Origin: an uncultured Clostridia bacterium
GTDB taxonomy: Bacteria > Bacillota > Clostridia > TANB77 > CAG-508
Length of the DNA: 53,725 nucleotides
Direction of reading: 5' to 3'
NCBI GenBank assembly: GCA_944388985.1
Contig: CALXKT010000001.1
Span: 1 to 53,725, forward strand
Part shown: piece after piece, positions 3,792-49,986 of the stretch
Layout: each line of letters begins with the position of its first letter
How positions within the stretch are numbered: the first letter of the stretch is position 1
Position numbers and translations under genes: made by a program
Notes under the pieces: model-generated
Told to the model about the DNA's origin: nothing
Databases searched by the model: none
The model's input: only the letters and a program-made list of their open reading frames with translations

Positions 3792-5393
3792 TTAAGCAAT
3801 ATCTCTATCAAATTCTTTGCTGATATCGATATCAAATACATATACACCTTTTTCGTCAAAATCCTTACATAGCGACGAATACCTTATATTATCATCATTT
3901 GTTGCAAATAAAGCTTTTCTTTTTTGTTTTGCAGCATCTTCAAATAGATACATAAGTACTTTGCTTTTGAAAACTTGTATAAATAGTTCATCACTTTCTA
4001 ATGCTTTTGTAGCGATAAAATAAGGGCCAAGCAATTTATCTTCATTAATTTTTAGGGAACTCAGCTTATTGTTGATTGCTTTTCTTAACTTGTTCCATTC
4101 TACATTACGCTTAAACTCTCCCTTTCCAAGCACAACATATTTGCTGGCTATTCCTTCTTCTTTTTCATCTATTCCTAAGTAATCAAAATTCCATCTTCTT
4201 TTAAATGCAGTGTCCATTGGAAATACTCCTTGGTCGGCACTATTCATGGTCGCCCAAATAAACATATTGTCTGGAATAGCTATCTTTTTGTAATCTTCTG
4301 GACTTCCTCCTAATTCTTGTGCCAAATACTTTTTCATATCTTCTGAAGCTTCGATAGGATACTCGCTTACATGATTCTCATCACGGTCTAATAATTGGAA
4401 GATGTCGCCAAAGACAGCAGCCACATTTGCTCTATTAATTTCTTCTATCATTAATAAATATGGCTTAATATGATTCGTTCTGCTATTTTTTATAGCCTCC
4501 ACATAGATGCGCATAAATGGTCCTGGCACGTATTGATAGGTTATGCCTTCTTCCTCTCCCTTTTTATAAGGTACCGGTTTATAGGTTCCTACAAAATTTG
4601 CATAAGAATAATCTGGATGGAAAGTAACACGCTCATAGTTTTCTTCGTTTCCATCTTTTAATAATATTTTACGGTCTTCATTTAATCTATAGCTCTTTCC
4701 TGTTCCAGGTGCTCCAAAAACAATACGATTTCGACTAAATTCACTGACATATCCTGTTTTATAATTTGGGGCTATTCCCTCATAAAGCAATTCATCAACA
4801 TGTACAAGCGTATTGGTTGGCTTTTCATAGAATTTATTATTTAATTCTTGTAAGTTGTCATTCACATCATCTGGTAATATTCCATAGTATTCATACTCAA
4901 ACAGCTCTTTTTTCTTTAAGATAATTAAATATGCACCAACATGTAGCATCTTTCTAAATTTTATAAAATTATCGTCATCATAAGTTGGTAATGACATTTG
5001 AATTTGGTCTGCTTGTCCTGCTCTTTTACTTCTTACAATGGATACATAGGTTTTTAATTTTCCACTTTGAAATTCCATTTCCTCTGTTAGCACATCATGG
5101 TTTATATATTTTAGATTGCTTTCTGTTAACATCACAGGTATTTGCATAATAAAATATTTCTTCCTATTTTGCAAATTATGTATAAAGTAACCATCTGACC
5201 TAAAATATGGGAATATATCCATCTGGTCCCCGGTAATCGCAATATGGGTTTGGTTTGTTGTCCTATTAGCATCTAGTGTATTGCTTGCTTCCAATTTCTT
5301 TACTATTAATCCATCATAATCTGCTGGATTAATATCCGTTCCTAAATCTTTTAGTAGCTCTTTTACAGAATTAATTGCTTCCTCAAAATTCAT
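3792..5393 (-). CDS. McrB-like AAA+ GTPase restriction subunit with a distinct N-terminal DNA-binding domain (LlaJI.R1-like)
   Basis: Walker A GAPGTGKSY, Walker B LLMIEEINRANVAAVFGD, McrB signatures WATMNSADQG and FKRRWNF. About 220 aa of N-terminal domain are not assignable by eye. Confidence 0.8.
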   Translation of the reverse strand: MNFEEAINSVKELLKDLGTDINPADYDGLIVKKLEASNTLDANRTTNQTHIAITGDQMDIFPYFRSDGYFIHNLQNRKKYFIMQIPVMLTESNLKYINHDVLTEEMEFQSGKLKTYVSIVRSKRAGQADQIQMSLPTYDDDNFIKFRKMLHVGAYLIILKKKELFEYEYYGILPDDVNDNLQELNNKFYEKPTNTLVHVDELLYEGIAPNYKTGYVSEFSRNRIVFGAPGTGKSYRLNEDRKILLKDGNEENYERVTFHPDYSYANFVGTYKPVPYKKGEEEGITYQYVPGPFMRIYVEAIKNSRTNHIKPYLLMIEEINRANVAAVFGDIFQLLDRDENHVSEYPIEASEDMKKYLAQELGGSPEDYKKIAIPDNMFIWATMNSADQGVFPMDTAFKRRWNFDYLGIDEKEEGIASKYVVLGKGEFKRNVEWNKLRKAINNKLSSLKINEDKLLGPYFIATKALESDELFIQVFKSKVLMYLFEDAAKQKRKALFATNDDNIRYSSLCKDFDEKGVYVFDIDISKEFDRDIA

Positions 5394-5453
5394 AATTTAT
5401 CACATTCCTTTCTAGATTGTTTTAAATCCTTATCTTTATATCATAATTTTTAT

Positions 5454-5598
5454 TGCTTCTGTGGGCCGTCTTTTTTTCTTTTAGTTGGAGACTTAAGGTG
5501 GGGACCGACAAGTTTACAAACTGTTAAGCGAAGCTTGTACAGTTTGTACGCAGTTGGGGGTCGTAAACTAAAAGAAAAAAAGACGGTCTGCAGAAGCA
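5454..5598 (+). ncRNA. Unclassified structured hairpin element, copy 1 (invariant core in a copy-specific 33-bp closing stem); strand and RNA-versus-DNA role uncertain
   Basis: 5454-5486 pairs with 5566-5598 (30 Watson-Crick plus 3 G:T, no bulges). Core blocks are CTTAAGGTGGGGACCGACAAG (5492-5512) and ACAGTTTGTACGCAGTTGGGGG (5539-5560). Inner stem is TACAAACTGT/ACAGTTTGTA. No ORF. The same architecture occurs at 24395-24550 and 49679-49882. Confidence 0.45.
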
Positions 5599-5609
5599 TA
5601 ATCCCATAA

Positions 5610-7061
5610 TTATTCAATATTTTGCTCCTCTTCTAAACAACGTTTAATAACCTGTGCAATTGTTTTACTTAATAATGGCGGTACAGAATTTCCTATTTGC
5701 ATATAGGTTTTTGTGTAAGAGCCTCTAAAGAAATAATCATCTGGATAGGATTGCACTCTTGCGGCTTCCCTTGGCGTTAGCCCTCTAGCTTGTGTTGGGT
5801 GAATATACATGTTGCAATCAAATTTCATATGTGCTGTAATTGTTTTGCAAACCTTATTCTCCTCTAGCTTAAAATATTTATCTTTAAAAATATCGTTTCT
5901 ATTTTTATATGGCATAATATCTGCTATCTTAGGATCATCCGATTTATCTCCTTGTTTTAGTCTCCTAAAAATTTCGATATCCCTTTCATTATTATACCTA
6001 GCCTTATGATTAAAAATCAAGCCACAGGTTTTGTTTTGATTGATAATACTTATATACTCATTTTGATTTTGCCTATTATTTTTTTCAATTTTCTTTCCGG
6101 AATCGATTGTATCTCTTTCTGTTGCATTTTTTTCTTGTAGTGCTTTTAACTCTCTAAGCCCATATAACGCATCTTTTAAAACAAATTTCGGTATTGTTAG
6201 AGCTGTTTCTTCAATTTGCTTAAAGATTTCTTCATTATCGTATCCTACATTATTTCCGATAAATATTAATCTTTCTCTATTTTGTGGCACGCCATAATCT
6301 TTTGCATTTAGAATTTTGCAAGATACAGTGTAGCCAATTTTCTCAAAATCTTCTATTATTTGGTTTGCCACTGAATACATGCCTTTTACATTTTCCATTA
6401 CAAAAAATTTAGGTTTTACTAAATCTACCACTTTCACATAACTTTTATATAATTTATTTCTTGGGTCATCGATTACTCGTTGGCGATTCGCCATGCTAAA
6501 TCCTTGGCAAGGTGGTCCTCCCACTACGATATCAATTTTGTCAAATCTTTTTAATTCGTTTATCTTATCCATAATGTTATTAATATCGTCGCAAACTATA
6601 TTTTCTCTTGGTATTTCTGGATGATTATGGGAATAGGTGTCCACACAGCATTCTTCTATATCGTTTGCAAAAGCCACCTTAAACCCAGCCTGCACAAACC
6701 CTAAGGATAATCCTCCTGCTCCGCAGAATAAATCAATTAATGTTGGTGCATCATTTTCTACCTTATTATTTCTATTTTGTATATTGTAATTGCAATATTT
6801 CGCCACTGGACATTCGGCACATTTTTCTTCTTGACAAAATTTTTTATATAGCCATGTTAATTTATTTTCTTTTTCGTCAAATTCATACTCTCTAAAATAT
6901 TGCATTCTTTCCTTTAAATAAGCATTTGTGTTCTCTGCGCATAAATAATTTAATGCATTAAAAGCATATTCTTGGTTTGGATATTCCTCTTCATATAATT
7001 CGGAAAGAATACTACAAATTTCTTTTGCATCATTTTCATACTTTTTCGTTGTTTTAGTCAT
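5610..7061 (-). CDS. DNA (cytosine-5) methyltransferase with a Cys-rich N-terminal extension of about 100 aa
   Basis: Motif I DLFCGAGG, motif IV GGPPCQGFS, motif VI ENVKGM, motif VIII QNRERLIFIG, motif X GNSVPP. An 8-nt overlap with the upstream MTase gene (ATGACTAA) suggests translational coupling. Confidence 0.9.
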   Translation of the reverse strand: MTKTTKKYENDAKEICSILSELYEEEYPNQEYAFNALNYLCAENTNAYLKERMQYFREYEFDEKENKLTWLYKKFCQEEKCAECPVAKYCNYNIQNRNNKVENDAPTLIDLFCGAGGLSLGFVQAGFKVAFANDIEECCVDTYSHNHPEIPRENIVCDDINNIMDKINELKRFDKIDIVVGGPPCQGFSMANRQRVIDDPRNKLYKSYVKVVDLVKPKFFVMENVKGMYSVANQIIEDFEKIGYTVSCKILNAKDYGVPQNRERLIFIGNNVGYDNEEIFKQIEETALTIPKFVLKDALYGLRELKALQEKNATERDTIDSGKKIEKNNRQNQNEYISIINQNKTCGLIFNHKARYNNERDIEIFRRLKQGDKSDDPKIADIMPYKNRNDIFKDKYFKLEENKVCKTITAHMKFDCNMYIHPTQARGLTPREAARVQSYPDDYFFRGSYTKTYMQIGNSVPPLLSKTIAQVIKRCLEEEQNIE

Positions 7062-18563: not shown

Positions 18564-18603
18564 ACTTGAACAAAAGGGACACTCCTTTTTGTTCAAGTTT
18601 TTG
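18564..18603 (+). terminator. leuS terminator, built from a subfamily-A GGGAC repeat unit
   Basis: ACTTGAACAAAAGG-GACACT-CCTTTTTGTTCAAGT followed by TTTTT. Confidence 0.7.
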
Positions 18604-19785: not shown

Positions 19786-19857
19786 AGAGCTTGAACAAAA
19801 GGGACACTCCTTTTTGTTCAAGCTCTTAAACGTTTAGGAGTGTCCCTTTTGTTCAAA
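19786..19857. repeat. GGGAC-core repeat pair, subfamily A, between convergent genes (probable bidirectional terminator)
   Basis: AGAGCTTGAACAAAAGGGACACTCCTTTTTGTTCAAGCTCT is followed by TAAACGTTTAGGAGTGTCCCTTTTGTTCAAAC, the inverted copy. Confidence 0.8.
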
Positions 19858-24237: not shown

Positions 24238-24394
24238 GGTTTTCCCTCCTGTTTTTCAATTTTTACTTTTTCTTTATGCATTTCTATCGATTTCGTACTT
24301 AACTATTGTATCATTTTTTAGATGCAAAGGCAACTAATTTTTGGTCGTTTTCTTGAACAAAAGTTACTGGATAGTTACAATTCACGGTTGTTTT

Positions 24395-24550
24395 AATCGT
24401 AGCAATGTATATTTTAAATTTATGTTGGAGTGCTTAAGGTGGGGACCGACAAGTTTACAAACTGTTAAACGAAACATAAGTGGAGTTTATACAGTTTGTA
24501 CGCAGTTGGGGGCCGGAAACATAAATTTAAAATATACATTGTTACGACTT
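24395..24550 (+). ncRNA. Unclassified structured hairpin element, copy 2
   Basis: A 29-bp closing stem: 24398-24426 pairs with 24518-24546 (28 Watson-Crick plus 1 G:T), extended by AAT/ATT-like pairs with one bulge. Core blocks are identical to copy 1 (36 nt at 24433-24468 and 22 nt at 24491-24512). The apical hairpin differs. Confidence 0.45.
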
Positions 24551-24600
24551 TTTAGAACAAGCTTTGAATGGTAACACTGACTAATGAAGAAAAAATGCAT

Positions 24601-26325: not shown

Positions 26326-26453
26326 GGACACTCTTTTTTGTCCAAGTTTTTGGTGAACGTTGGGGACACTCCTTTTTGTTTAAGAACTTGAACATTTAGG
26401 AGTGTCCCTTTTGTTCAAGTTCTTGAACGTTTAGGAGTGTCCCTTTTGTTCAA
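26326..26453. repeat. Four tandem subfamily-A GGGAC units of about 35 bp (two forward, two inverted)
   Basis: GGGACACTC at about 26335 and GGGGACACTCC at about 26362, then GGAGTGTCCC at 26398-26407 and at about 26434. Each is flanked by TTGAAC/GTTCAA words. The cluster overlaps the addB stop codon (26450-26452). Confidence 0.85.
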
Positions 26454-29400
26454 CCCTTCTCCTTCATTTGCTCTAGAATCGTGTCTCTCTCTGCATTGCC
26501 AATATACGTATACTCCTTTTTGCCGATTCCTGTATTAAAGTTACAAATGGACTTATATTTACAATACTCACATGGTGTTTTGCCACCTTTTATTTTGTAA
26601 TATGGTTTTACCTGTATATTTCCCTCTAAAATATTGTTTGCAATTTGTTTTATTATTTTATTCGTATATTTCTGCAAGTTTTCAAATTGCTGTCTTGTAA
26701 TGGTACTACTTCGGCTAGGAGTAATTTCTCCCTTTGTGTTAATGTAAGCGGGCACCATATTGGCATAGCCTGTCGAAAAGCTTTTGTCCATCTTTTTAAT
26801 CATATTCACATCTGCTAGAATGAGACCTTTCATTTTAAATTGTTTGCGAATTTCCGCTTCTATTTTTGCCTCGTCTGCTCCTTTTGCCACATTGGCGCTA
26901 GGATCCATTAAGGTAAAGTAAAGCACTCCTGCTGGCATAACATCTTCGATATTGCAGACAGCGTCCAAATAGGTTAATAACTGTAATTGTAAGCCTGCCA
27001 CAACCTCATTTAGGTTAATGTCCTTGGCAGAAGATTTGTAGTCGATAATTCGTATATAATTTCCCTCTGGTGTTTTTGCAATGTCAATACGGTCAATCTT
27101 CCCTGTGATTTCTACTTTTTTTCCATCTTCTAGTTGTAATTGAATTGCTGGATATTCCTTGCCATTTTTGAATTCCATTTCATGTCCCATTACTTCAAAA
27201 TCGCTATATTTTAAACTGTCTACAATATAAAGAATAGAAGTTTGAATCACTCTTTTTAGTCGATTGGCTAAAACTTTATATTTTGGTATGCTGGTAAAAA
27301 TATAATTTCGTTTTAATTGCAATTTTTCTTCAATTACTTCTTCTACTATTTCCTGTATTTCTTCTTGCGTTACGGTTTTAACATCTAAATTTCTTTCTTG
27401 CAATTTGTCGAAAAAGCTATCAATTACGTCATGCATAAAGGTACCGGTGTCAATCGATTGCACTTTAAATTCTTCTTTTTCTGAAAGATTTAGCCCATAT
27501 TTTAAGTAATACGAAAATGGACAAGATTGGTATTGCTCCAGTCTTGAAATACTTGTTCTTAAGGTGTCTCCATATAATTTTTGTAATAACTCTTTGCTTA
27601 AGTTGTCTGGCTGAATATGGAAATGTAGCGCCTCTAAACTGTTCTTTAGCCTTTCTTTCCACTCTGGTGTAGTCACATAATAGTGGTATAGCATTAGCCA
27701 AGTATCTTCTATTTCTTTTCCCTCTTTGTAATCACGTAATTTATCTAATAGTGCTTCAAACGTGCTCTCTTCTGTGCTAACCGAATATCTCTTTTGAATA
27801 ACATCGCTTTCTTCTATTAGGTTAGGAAATATCTTTTTCACTCGGTTTCGTAAAATGGATGGTCGTAGTGCCTTTCCCTCGATGTCTGCAGATGAATAGG
27901 ATAGATATAGTTTTTCTTCGGCAGTTCCAAAGGCTTTGTAGATATTGAAGTTGTCATCATACAATTGCTCTGTTGTACCTTTTGCAAGTTCCATGCCTTG
28001 CTCTTTTAAAATATCTCTATCCTTATCATTCAAAAAGCCTTCGTTTTTGTTGACGCTTGGGAACATTCCATCATTTAGCCCAATGATAAATACAGCTCGT
28101 ACTTTGTGGCTTCTTGACCTATCCACATCTCCCACGGTTACTTGGTCTTGCGTACTTGGTATTTTGCCTAAGCCGGTATTTCCTAGTCCCGTTTTTAGTA
28201 TTTCCGCATATTGGTCAAAACTTAGTTTTCTCTCGCCTAGCACCAGCACCATTTCGTCGAAAAGATTCATCATAATGGTATAACTGCTTTCCAATTCTTT
28301 CGCTTTTTCTAATTCTCCCATCTCTTCTAAATCTTTTATTCTTTCGCTTAACCTTTGTTGGATGCTATTTTCAATTAAAAATTGATATAGCTTCGAGGTG
28401 ATGCTTTTTACATCTTTACTGCTAGATAACGCATTTTTTAGGCTTAACAATGGCTCGATTATCTTTTCTCGTATATGTAAAATCTTTTTTTGCTCTTCTT
28501 CTGTTTCCTGGTAAAAATTCCATTCTACTTGATACCATTTTGCTCCCTTAATGCCCCATTTGATAGCATAATTTTCTATCACATAGACATCGTCTTCTTC
28601 GATTTCTTTTACCAAACCGGTTTTAATATATTCCAAAATACTGTCTGTCGTCCAGTTCTTGGCAAAGATATTTAAAACCGCTAAGAGGTATTTTACTAAT
28701 ACATTTTGGCTCAAATCCTTTTTTTCATCGATAAACACCGGAATATGGTATTTGGCAAAAATAACTTTGCATAAATTTGCATACCCCTCTAAGTCTTTGG
28801 TAATAACCGAAATGTCTTGGTATCGATATTGCTTATCATGCACTAGTTTTACAATCTGCTCTGCCACATACTCTATTTCAGAATATTGATTTTTTGCTAG
28901 GAATAAGCTTAAATTTTCCACTTTTTCGGTATACTGGTGATACGGAAAAGCATAGATGTTTTGCTCTAAATGCTTTAGCTCTGATGCTTTAAATCGATAC
29001 GTTTTTTCTAAGCAAACATTTTCTTGTACCGCACAATTTTCTTGCTTTGCGATTTGCAATATTCTATCTAAGGTCACTTTATTGGCATAAAAAACATCAG
29101 TATCTGGATTGGTACTTACCTCAATGTCATCGGTACACACAGTAATCGTAACTTGATGCGCCTTTTGTAATAACTTTCTTAGAATTTCATACTCTTGATG
29201 GGTAAATCCGACAAATTCGTCAATATAGATATCGGTATCATCAAATTCTTGTACCAAATCAAGTGTTTCTGCTAGTCTCGTTAAATTATCGTTTTCATCT
29301 AAATACTCACTTTGGATGCATTCTTCGTATTTTTCGTATATTTCTAGCATATCTTGCAACTTTGTTTGCAAATATTTATTTTGCACTTTCTCTTTTTCTT

Positions 29401-37682: not shown

Positions 37683-37752
37683 CCTTGAACAAAAGGGACA
37701 CTCCTTTTTGTTCAAGCTCTTGAACGTTTTGGAGTGTCCCTTTTGTTTAAGG
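37683..37752. repeat. GGGAC-core repeat pair, subfamily A (probable terminator of the P-type ATPase gene)
   Basis: CCTTGAACAAAAGGGACACTCCTTTTTGTTCAAGCTC plus TTGAACGTTTTGGAGTGTCCCTTTTGTTTAAGG, 3 nt from the ATPase stop codon. Confidence 0.8.
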
Positions 37753-40605: not shown

Positions 40606-40944
40606 CTATGTGTCGATATAATATCCTTCCTCTTTGTGTAATTTCGGATTATATCTGCAATTGCCTTTTCCTTTCTTCTGGCACCTTTCACAATGGACTT
40701 CTTTGCACAAAGCAATGAAGTCGCCATTCTCGTCAATACTGCCACGGATAGCTTTTATTTCCATTGTTCTGTTTGTAATGGTCAGAATACCTTTATGAAA
40801 TTTTTTTGGTACTCCCAGATAACGGACACCTAGATAGCATGATCCGTTCCGCATGGAAATTTTTTGCATCGACATCACATGTCCCTCCAAAAATAGAATG
40901 TAATAACCATTGTAGTCCTTTTTTCTGCAATTGTCAACTAACAT
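40606..40944 (-). CDS. Hypothetical small protein (Cys/Lys-rich C-terminus)
   Basis: ORF only, with no recognised motif. The start is uncertain (internal MSMQKISM is possible). Confidence 0.3.
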   Translation of the reverse strand: MLVDNCRKKDYNGYYILFLEGHVMSMQKISMRNGSCYLGVRYLGVPKKFHKGILTITNRTMEIKAIRGSIDENGDFIALCKEVHCERCQKKGKGNCRYNPKLHKEEGYYIDT

Positions 40945-48362: not shown

Positions 48363-48440
48363 GAACTTGAACAAAAGGGACACTCCTAAACGTTTAAGAA
48401 CTTGAACAAAAGGCAGTAGTCCCTTTTGTTCAAGTTCAAG
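48363..48440. repeat. GGGAC-core repeat pair, subfamily A, between convergent HD-GYP and mazF genes (probable bidirectional terminator)
   Basis: GAACTTGAACAAAAGGGACACTCCTAAACGTTTAAGAAC plus TTGAACAAAAGGCAGTAGTCCCTTTTGTTCAAGTTCAAG, followed by TTTTT. Confidence 0.8.
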
Positions 48441-48443
48441 TTT

Positions 48444-48791
48444 TTAATCTAGCCCAAAGCTTACACCCAAAGCATTATTCACCTGCGATATAATCGTTTC
48501 ATCATCAATATGTCCTATTTTTTCTTTTAATCTACTCTTATCAATCGTTCTAATTTGTTCTGCTAGTACCACTGAATCTTCTTTTAATCCATTATTTTGT
48601 GAGCCTATTTCTATATGTGTTGGTAATTTGTTTTTTCCGGTTTGTGATGTAATTGCTGCTGCGATTACCGTAGGGCTATGTTTATTTCCTACATCATTCT
48701 GGATAATGAGTACTGGTCTTACCCCACCTTGTTCTGAACCAACTACTGGACTTAAATCCGCATAAAACATATCTCCTCTTTTTATTACCAT
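48444..48791 (-). CDS. mazF: MazF/PemK/EndoA-type endoribonuclease toxin
   Basis: [36 protein letters not shown]... From memory it is near-collinear with B. subtilis EndoA (NdoA). The start ATG at 48791 is 8 nt after AGGAG. Confidence 0.9.
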
Positions 48792-48871
48792 ATTCTTCAC
48801 TCCTACTGTTTGTATATTTAAGGCATTATTTTTAATATATTTTAGAAATCAGTTTGAAATAACGAAAAGAG

Positions 48872-49573
48872 CTAATACAATTCTGCTTCTGTTTCTATCG
48901 TTTTAAAGGCTAATATATCATTTTCTTTTATGCTATTTATCGTTATCTCATTATATAATATGTAAACTACATTTTTTTCGTTAACATCTTGTATTACCAT
49001 TTTGCATGGATTTCCAGTTTCTTTTTTTACATATAACTTTTTATTTTGTCGATAGTCATTTTCTTTTTTTGAAGTACATTCTAAAACAAACTCATTATTT
49101 TCTTCATAACATTTATTGCTATTGTCTTCCTTATTTTGCCTATAATCCGCAATAAATGCCTCTAAACTCAAATCGTTATTGGTAAAACTTTCATAACTTT
49201 CGTAAATTTTACTTAAATTAAACTTTGCATTGTATATCGTAAGGTTGTTTCCATCATAAGTTGTTTCTAACCCTGCTATGTTTTCTGGCTCTAGGACGAT
49301 TTGTTTCGAGATGTTTGGTGCTACATATTTTTGGGATAATACATATTTATTTTCATTTTTATTACTTACCACTGTTACTGCTACTGTTGCTTCATAAGAA
49401 CTGAGATTTAAAATATATTCTTCTATGTCCTCAATACTTTTGTTACTTTTAGTATTGCCAATTTTTAAATTTTTATCATTATTTTTCAGAAAAAAAATGA
49501 TAATTATTAAAAAAATAAGAATCACAGCCAAAATGGCAATCGTTTTTTTTCTTTTTTTGAACTGTTGCAACAT
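48872..49573 (-). CDS. Hypothetical membrane-anchored protein
   Basis: N-terminal TM helix followed by an Asn/Lys-rich extracytoplasmic domain. No motif recognised. Confidence 0.5.
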   Translation of the reverse strand: MLQQFKKRKKTIAILAVILIFLIIIIFFLKNNDKNLKIGNTKSNKSIEDIEEYILNLSSYEATVAVTVVSNKNENKYVLSQKYVAPNISKQIVLEPENIAGLETTYDGNNLTIYNAKFNLSKIYESYESFTNNDLSLEAFIADYRQNKEDNSNKCYEENNEFVLECTSKKENDYRQNKKLYVKKETGNPCKMVIQDVNEKNVVYILYNEITINSIKENDILAFKTIETEAELY

Positions 49574-49641
49574 TGCATTAACTCCTTTTACCAGACCAGA
49601 TTTACATCATTTGTTCCTCGGAAAATTTTATAGTGTTGCCT

Positions 49642-49918
49642 GTTACTAGATAATAGTTTATTAGGTTATATCTTGCCCAAATGCAGTTAGTGGATACTTT
49701 TCATTTTTATTTACGACTCAAGGTGGGGACCGACAAGATACAGGCTGTGGAAAAATTACTCTTGAAGAAAAAACTTGTTTTTTCTTCAAGTAGAAATAGG
49801 CAGAACCCCTGTAATTTTTACTACAGACTGTTCGATGTTGGGGGGAGTAAATACAAATGAAAAGTACCCACTAACTGCATTTCAAAATAAAAAGAATGAT
49901 AAACCATTATCTTGTAAC
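49642..49918 (+). ncRNA. Unclassified structured hairpin element, copy 3; a 277-bp foldback with the conserved core, flanked by a 9-bp direct repeat
   Basis: Outer arms 49642-49663 / 49897-49918 (19 Watson-Crick plus 1 G:T of 22). Main 36-bp stem 49679-49714 / 49847-49882 (34 of 36 paired). Core AAGGTGGGGACCGACAAG at 49720-49737 and GTTGGGGG at 49837-49844. Direct repeat GTGTTGCCT at 49633-49641 and 49919-49927. Confidence 0.5.
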
Positions 49919-49986
49919 GTGTTGCCTATCGCCCAGCTGTAAGAAAAAAGTAGATTAACTACTCATTAATCTACTTTCATTTTATT

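Follow-up and report, generated by a model that had tools for sequence, protein, structure and literature searches.

The Correia elements of Neisseria (CREE/NEMIS) are foldback MITEs (miniature inverted-repeat transposable elements) of 100–160 bp that lie in abundance beside genes, have 26-bp terminal inverted repeats (TIRs), duplicate TA and possess a functional central region; their hairpin transcripts are cleaved by RNase III. ERIC (IRU) and the pneumococcal BOX and RUP repeats are intergenic palindromic repeats with orientation-dependent effects on the flanking mRNAs, and BOX is modular. REP/BIME are palindromes of 20–40 nt that have no TIR or target-site duplication (TSD) and are associated with a Y1 transposase, and the palindrome-associated elements derived from IS200/IS605 have subterminal hairpins, no TIRs and no target duplication. 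Insertion sequences (IS) of the IS256, ISL3, IS6, IS66 and IS1595 families duplicate 8–9 bp (ISfinder). The element described here is a 277-bp foldback beside dusB, the third of three related hairpin elements (copies 1, 2 and 3) in a 53,725-nucleotide stretch of DNA from an uncultured Clostridia bacterium (contig CALXKT010000001.1, positions 1 to 53,725), hereafter the window. Copy 3 is very probably a MITE, that is, a non-coding derivative of a DNA transposon, and its ends are conserved TIRs of 20–22 bp, designated type T1.

Copy 3 and its relatives share with bacterial MITEs their small size, the lack of coding capacity, conserved TIRs, TSDs whose length is fixed and whose sequence varies, numerous intergenic copies and the fold into a long hairpin; insertion polymorphism, another trait of MITEs, was seen for a sister element. 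They differ in that no parent IS was identified, that inverted symmetry extends 60–90 bp inward, far past the TIR, which is unusual for a MITE, and that the centre is a conserved, strand-asymmetric, covarying module common to several types of TIR. A TSD of 7–9 bp of variable sequence is incompatible with the TA duplication of the Correia elements and RUP, and the TIRs start with GTTAC; no kinship in sequence with the Correia repeats is expected. The orientation bias and the modular shells and cargos of the family are comparable to those of ERIC, BOX and RUP, which have other hosts and sequences; to our knowledge ERIC and BOX lack regular 8-bp TSDs, and none of the three carries the core of copy 3. 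The length of the TSD is like that of the five IS families named above, but their TIRs start differently (GG..., GGCTCTT, GGTTCTG or GTAAGCG). Beside the TIRs of the collected loci no transposase from any of the five turned up, and the likeness is a lead only. Copy 3 and its relatives probably form a new, high-copy MITE family of uncultured gut Clostridia whose cargo may be a functional RNA.

Terminal inverted repeats and target-site duplications

Relatives of copy 3 were collected by scanning species-representative genomes with the exact 18-mer core motif AAGGTGGGGACCGACAAG, found in copy 3 at 49720–49737. The scan gave at least 113 loci; related loci from metagenome-assembled genomes (MAGs) are labeled with L-numbers. 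With chance matches in high-G+C genomes set aside, at least 94 exact-core copies are left, from about 20 species-level MAGs of uncultured Clostridia of ~29% G+C, many of which hold numerous copies. Their hosts are human (BRZ, Hadza, HRGM and MGYG sets) and ruminant guts. A covariance model of the core found 114 matches in 707 kb of collected loci, including copies without the exact 18-mer. In the window the 18-mer occurs exactly three times, always on the + strand, against 0.01 occurrences expected by chance, and the matches to covariance model R1 are the same three copies only. The general layout of the family is outer shell, long arm, core, long arm and outer shell.

The arms, core motifs, inner hairpin and flanking 9-mer of copy 3 that a first-pass annotation had reported from the window alone were all found where it had placed them. 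The outer arms begin GTTACTAGATAATAG and are 90% complementary over 20 nt (49642–49661 with 49899–49918), extendable to 22 nt; the arms of the inner hairpin (49761–49774 with 49777–49790) are 100% complementary, and a second core motif, GTTGGGGG, lies at 49837–49844. The 295-nt segment is predicted to fold at -107.9 kcal/mol on the + strand (z = -10.5 against shuffled sequence) and at -102.6 kcal/mol on the - strand (z = -10.1). Only short, spurious open reading frames (ORFs) of up to 74 aa overlap the element, and none is conserved. Counterparts of the left spacer are found in other T1 elements. The proximal two thirds of the left long arm are homologous to the arms of the family, which fall into subfamilies with a common T-rich proximal part (...GTATATATTTTTTNATTTTTATT).

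The first-pass annotation regarded the terminal arms as specific to each copy, the opposite of what is expected of a MITE, and the 36-bp stem as unique to copy 3. Neither statement holds across the family. The termini of copy 3 are conserved TIRs (GTTACTRGATAATGG) common to dozens of elements in many MAGs, and copy 2 is likewise bounded by a second conserved type, T2 (GTTACAATTCACRG), which bounds many other elements as well. The T1 sequence GTTACTAGATAATAGTTT recurs as inverted pairs in many loci (15–18-mer pairs 50–350 bp apart), and pairs that match the outer arm of copy 3 are present in L029, L051, L056, L058, L076, L091, L103 and other loci. The stem itself is shared: 49694–49866 aligns at 81–84% with L021, L059, L092 and L002.

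The 9-mer that brackets copy 3 had been interpreted as a probable TSD and a sign of mobility. That interpretation stands: the foldback is mobile or once was, and the 9-mer sits exactly where other family members carry duplications. Twelve other GTTAC...GTAAC elements have perfect 8-bp direct repeats just outside their ends, and every repeat is different in sequence. The flanking 8-mers of 46 TIR pairs are identical in 13 cases, match at 7/8 positions in 6 and at 6/8 in 5; among shifted controls 0/184 had one mismatch or fewer. The duplication measures 9 bp at copy 3 and 7 bp at L076, and the stagger is 7–9 bp with a mode of 8. Within a single MAG, BRZ_HM bin72, one element occupies two sites (L076 and L044), and the TSDs there differ. 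A catalogue of copies with their flanking repeats had been proposed as a check on mobility, and in it 8-bp TSDs, with a range of 7–9 bp, are a hallmark of the family.

Filled and empty sites and the dusB alleles

An insertion site in both states was found for a sister element with the same TIR. The filled site, in L051, reads GACC-TTTCGTTC-(268-bp T1 MITE)-TTTCGTTC-GCTATACAATAA, and the empty orthologue, L066 from a different species-level MAG, reads GACC-TTTCGTTC-GTTATACAATAA, with a single 8-mer and collinear flanks. L024, from a third MAG, shares the left junction, where its T1 element encloses the cargo GGTGGGGACCGAC (cargo a); the cargo of L051 is different (cargo c). L014 was considered as an empty site for the element of L041 and was rejected; the locus is rearranged and has a duplicated terminator. 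As a separate observation, L051 contains at 2699–2816 an insert of ~98 nt (GAAAAGTTGCTTCGCC...GAAGATTTTTCC) bracketed by a 10-bp direct repeat (TATACAATAA). The orthologous L066 lacks the insert, which probably represents another mobile repeat family.

Copy 3 has dusB (Dus family) on one side and a YdcC-like gene on the other; both neighbors are on the - strand. Directly downstream of the YdcC-like gene is a PemK-family toxin gene (48444–48800 and 48872–49573 for the pair), and dusB has its own terminator at 49940–49984. Same-species contigs show two alleles. The window allele has a 413-nt spacer and is also present in L147–L149 and L155–L157, with L116 and L117 breaking inside the element. 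The second allele (L141, L142, L144 and L154) has a 285-nt spacer with a one-TIR, T1-like remnant ~21 nt away that lacks the core. The product of the PemK-family locus is 108 aa in the window allele and 115 aa in the 285-nt allele. A sister species whose DusB is 81% identical has a 91-nt spacer and no element, and is too diverged to show the target sequence.

The anatomy of the TIRs and TSDs, together with general knowledge of IS elements, points to a cut-and-paste mechanism. A DDE-type transposase would mobilize the element in trans, bind the GTTAC... ends and cut with a stagger of ~8 bp. Copy 3 landed between the dusB terminator and the next promoter region and duplicated the 9-bp target GTGTTGCCT; an empty dusB allele would, on the + strand, join ...GGCGATAGGCAACAC directly to TATAAAATTTTCC, with a single GTGTTGCCT.

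Several observations weigh against copy 3 as a MITE. The search for an empty site, which succeeded for the sister element, yielded none for copy 3 at dusB among same-species contigs (exact-protein look-ups and DusB homologues). The trans-acting enzyme that the first-pass annotation had suggested looking for did not come to light either: 880 kb of related loci contain no autonomous element or transposase with these TIRs. Searches for an autonomous element yielded no GTTAC...GTAAC pair that had an exact TSD at a spacing of up to 4 kb, nor any 10-mer-seeded inverted repeat 0.6–3.5 kb apart with an 8-bp TSD. The duplication at copy 3 is 9 bp, against a family mode of 8 bp. Recognizable T1 or T2 TIRs on both sides are present in only about a third of the core copies; other copies have palindromic shells, some of them terminator-like, and in copy 1 no TIR is recognizable. 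Candidate transposases were sought among ORFs beside unpaired TIRs and rejected (a radical SAM enzyme, Fic, HisRS, a histidine kinase, a glycosyltransferase, a GH15-like protein and similar). Multi-copy ORFs proved to be orthologues only.

Table 1. Positions of copy 3 and its parts, of the other window copies and of related repeats. Positions are those of the window unless a locus is named.
Feature	Position	Strand	Remarks
Left TSD, GTGTTGCCT	49633–49641		Exact 9-mer; second copy at 49919–49927; abuts TIR
Left TIR, type T1 (GTTACTAGATAATAGTTTAT..)	49642–49663		Pairs with 49897–49918
Left spacer	49664–49678		15-nt internal-loop side between TIR and long arm; unpaired in minimum-free-energy fold
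Left long arm	49679–49714		36 nt; 94% complementary to 49847–49882
Structured cargo core	49715–49846	+	Covariance model R1 match 49717–49844, E = 3.6e-8
Parts of the core			G·A/A·G plus 3-bp helix; 10-nt bulge AAGGUGGGGA; helix CCGAC/GUUGG; loop AAG/CGAU
Core helix P2	49740–49748 with 49823–49831
Core apical subfamily domain	49749–49822		Helix 49751–49759/49811–49819; hairpin 49761–49790
Right long arm	49847–49882		36 nt; complement of left long arm
Right spacer	49883–49896		14-nt internal-loop side
Right TIR, type T1 (..ATAAACCATTATCTTGTAAC)	49897–49918
Right TSD, GTGTTGCCT	49919–49927
Copy 2	24374–24575	+	202-bp MITE, type-T2 TIRs (GTTACAATTCACGG / CTTTGAATGGTAAC), same core; R1 136 bits
Copy 1	5454–5598	+	Same core and proximal arms; R1 115 bits
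T1 elements with other cargos	L029 3578–3737, L058 431–590; L051 2423–2690, L056 2080–2348, L103 809–1068
CTTGAACAAAAGGGACACTCC repeat	18565–18597, 19790–19857, 26336–26454, 37684–37751, 48366–48434 and others

The structured core

An alternative that is compatible with a MITE, and for which there is a modest chance, is that the core is the functional unit and the TIR shells are mere vehicles. The core would then be a novel small RNA, for instance a ribozyme, an antisense regulator or a sponge for proteins or ribosomes, and RNase III would process the long perfect stem to set free an apical RNA of ~75–130 nt. The structure of the core argues for such a role. A consensus fold from an alignment of 71 copies has 30 pairs, 19 of which show compensatory double changes. 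It consists, in order, of the closing stem, a purine-rich 3x3 loop (GGA/GGA, GGA/GAA or UGA/GAA), a short helix in which two U·G pairs are invariant, the 10-nt bulge AAGGUGGGGA, a helix CCGAC/GUUGG in which one G·U is invariant, the loop AAG/CGMW, P2, P3 and finally a variable tip; by inspection the purine-rich loop is read as tandem G·A pairs. Covariation is found in P1b, P2 and P3. Where the core of distant MAGs has arms and TIRs of an entirely different kind, P2, P3 and the closing helices still pair, by way of many compensatory changes, which indicates that the module is under selection for a single-strand structure. In L012, L015, L031, L068, L094 and L095 the P2 sequences, arms and ends are unrelated to those of the other copies, and the pairing and the GTTGGGG motif are kept; in L012 a TIR of another kind goes with an 8-bp duplication, TTATTCAA.

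The apical three-way domain of copy 3 is conserved in L021, L059, L082, L088, L092 and L002, and its helices covary (AAAAATTAC/GTAATTTTT vs AAAAAATAC/GTATTTTTT; CTTGAAG/CTTCAAG vs CATGAAT/ATTCATG). This domain had been described as a three-part insert that grew locally in copy 3; its presence in other genomes makes it a conserved subfamily domain instead. The base of the inner stem, earlier explained as a compensatory swap plus a mismatch, is the subfamily consensus ACAGTCTGT/ACAGACTGT with one point mutation in copy 3. The proposed likeness of the inner hairpin to the repeat CTTGAACAAAA comes down to one 11-mer with a mismatch, and the consensus elsewhere is CWTGAATAAAAAAC.

The core was also thought to be more conserved than the ends, and this was correct in part. 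The same core is present in several unrelated outer shells, and the distal arm of copy 1 is unique, but the ends of copy 3 are conserved. At least four types of shell were found, namely T1, T2, a terminator-like CAAAAGGGGACGGGC palindrome and the L012 type, in addition to the unique distal arm of copy 1. The core is therefore conserved more widely than any single kind of end. In one orthologous pair the element is 92–93% identical and its flanks are 60–81% identical, better conservation than that of the surroundings, as expected of a functional RNA.

The + strand of the core folds better in 71/71 copies (mean -34.9 vs -25.0 kcal/mol), and its helices contain 234 G·U against 8 A·C. A single A:C mismatch in the arm of copy 3 had been taken as a conflicting hint of strand; scored symmetrically, the arms of the family have 25 G·U vs 14 A·C (p = 0.11), which is not significant, and a strand call from arm wobble pairs was rejected. 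Family elements lie mostly 10–60 nt past the stop codon of the upstream gene. In 59 tandem contexts the + strand of the core is antisense to both neighbors in 49 and sense in 10, an orientation bias that would suit a functional RNA. A polarity of terminators was rejected as the cause of the bias, U-runs being rare on either strand: one follows the foldback on the + strand in 12/93 copies and on the - strand in 7/93. The same rarity separates the family from intrinsic terminators.

Several points stand against a functional RNA. The better-folding strand, antisense in 49/59 contexts, would need its own promoter, and neither a promoter nor a terminator is demonstrable. The TIRs contain inward-facing -10-like hexamers (GATAAT and TACAAT), which are weak, and scans for promoters give no more than background. 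Invariant as they are, the three wobble pairs could reflect conservation of sequence instead of pairing. The invariance of the 18-mer is in part an artefact, since copies were collected with that exact pattern, and recent amplification alone yields high similarity among copies.

None of the 4227 Rfam families matches the window, the element or 12 related loci at the gathering threshold, as would be the case for a novel RNA, and the best sub-threshold matches in a permissive search are eukaryotic snoRNA and miRNA noise. String and keyword searches of the literature found neither the core sequence nor a description of the element, and copy 2 has no match in phage and plasmid collections. Matches of viral contigs to the core and TIR were rejected as single, chance-level hits in sequences of 44–45% G+C or otherwise unrelated.

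The most economical reading of the covariation is an RNA, and the module most likely acts as RNA made from the + strand, in which the long perfect stem would aid processing or stability. There is likewise a modest chance that the GGUGGGGACCGAC core belongs to an undescribed class of structured RNA spread among uncultured gut Clostridia as MITE cargo; an RNase III stem of ~30 bp would release the core, and at least four transposon shells would have captured the same RNA. A released core could possibly serve as a ribosome or protein sponge by way of an extended Shine-Dalgarno-like bulge (UAAGGUGGGGA), or be a self-processing RNA. The bulge AAGGTGGGGA followed by ...AAG (49720–49737) resembles what we take to be a universal 16S rRNA motif, GGAAGGTGGGGATGACGTCAAG, and is close to the presumed full Shine-Dalgarno complement UAAGGAGGUGA; both resemblances may be coincidence.

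Nesting, shuffling and the wider family

The other window copies and their relatives record nesting and decay. Copy 2 is 85–90% identical to T2 elements in L041, L073 and L022. Its flanks, ACTGGATA (24366–24373) and ACTGACTA (24576–24583), match at 6/8 positions and when joined rebuild a T1 TIR (GTT-ACTGGATA-ATG), so copy 2 was inserted into a solo T1 end. This solo TIR (GTTACTGGATA/.../ATG), now split between 24363–24373 and 24576–24586, is direct evidence that one MITE landed in the remnant of another. Copy 1 has no T1 or T2 TIR; its arms are unique in their distal 16 nt (TGCTTCTGTGGGCCGT / ACGGTCTGCAGAAGCA), and it is homologous to other copies over 5468–5584 only. Copy 1 lies between genes for an McrB-like AAA_5 protein and a C5 cytosine DNA methyltransferase (3792–7061), in what looks like a restriction-modification locus. 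Where L051 and L011 have a full T2 element, L024 retains the left TIR alone. Evidently deletion removes long palindromes and leaves solo TIRs behind, the target of copy 2 being an example.

Cargos and shells are shuffled among family members. T1 TIRs also enclose two other conserved cargos, AAAGTCCGCGCAGGGAGC... and GCAGTGACGCGTAAGCGACCAAACGAGC..., neither of which matches Rfam, and the GCAGTGACGCGTAAGCGACCAAACGAGC... cargo has its middle stem, CTAGGTAATATGTATATTT, in common with a hairpin-core subfamily. Such shuffling raises a further explanation, which appears rather unlikely: copy 3 could be a nested composite whose inner foldback is mobile on its own and inserts at the center of pre-existing palindromes (terminator hairpins or short T1/T2 MITEs), in which case an older host MITE would account for the T1 TIRs and the 9-bp duplication. 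The inner module is indeed also present within terminator-like palindromes (CAAAAGGGGACGGGC...GCCCGTCCCCTTTTG) and copy-specific distal stems such as those of copy 1, T1 and T2 shells occur with other cargos, and L051 and L024 carry cargos c and a at one site with the same left junction. No direct repeats, however, surround the inner module inside its shells. Mini T1/T2 elements of 49–61 bp were considered as empty shells and rejected; they retain the first bases of the arm and are internal-deletion derivatives. Chimeric T1/T2 elements and shared middle stems are equally explained by recombination between members. Recombination is favored over insertion at the center of palindromes because no direct repeats bracket the inner module; the matter is not settled.

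A single-strand-DNA hairpin element, either REP/BIME-like with a RAYT or derived from IS200/IS605, would be moved by a Y1 (HUH) transposase that recognizes the hairpin. The strong hairpin potential, the strand-asymmetric core and the strand-orientation bias are features such an element would have, but copy 3 is very unlikely to be one. The family has TIRs, TSDs of ~8 bp and elements of 200–280 bp, unlike REP/BIME, and the precise 8-bp duplication at the filled and empty sites of L051 and L066 does not fit IS200/IS605 derivatives. The flanking repeats are variable rather than a conserved target motif, and no Y1 transposase genes were seen near any copies. That copy 3 is an ordinary intergenic hairpin or terminator with a coincidental 9-mer, as its place just downstream of dusB in AT-rich intergenic DNA might suggest, has next to no probability. 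The family evidence refutes it; dusB has a terminator of its own, the foldback has no U-run, and the arms, core and repeat position match a family of >100 members.

Two further features of the window concern terminator-like sequences. A separate short palindromic repeat, CTTGAACAAAAGGGACACTCC...TTTTGTTCAAG, has 25 matches against 3.8 expected, located just after genes like a reused terminator, and resembles the CAAAAGGGGACGGGC shells around the hairpin core in other MAGs. The segment 40517–41040, between orthologous genes, holds a plain terminator and a 112-aa ORF (40606–40944) without a Pfam match; relatives have at the equivalent place (L004 428–707, and L050) a terminator-like palindrome enclosing the hairpin core instead.

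As a family of MITEs, copy 3 and its relatives explain a class of assembly-breaking repeats in abundant uncultured gut Clostridia; metagenome contigs end inside family elements in L116 (1–226), L117 (1–151), L011 (1–136) and L066 (1–131). The TIR consensus sequences and the covariance model can now be used to mask or annotate the family. Its members create strain differences beside housekeeping genes, as the two dusB alleles within one species illustrate, and at another site one relative is empty, a second has cargo c and a third has cargo a. If the cargo acts as RNA, several transposon shells would have spread a structured RNA, and the family would be a clear case of this in bacteria.

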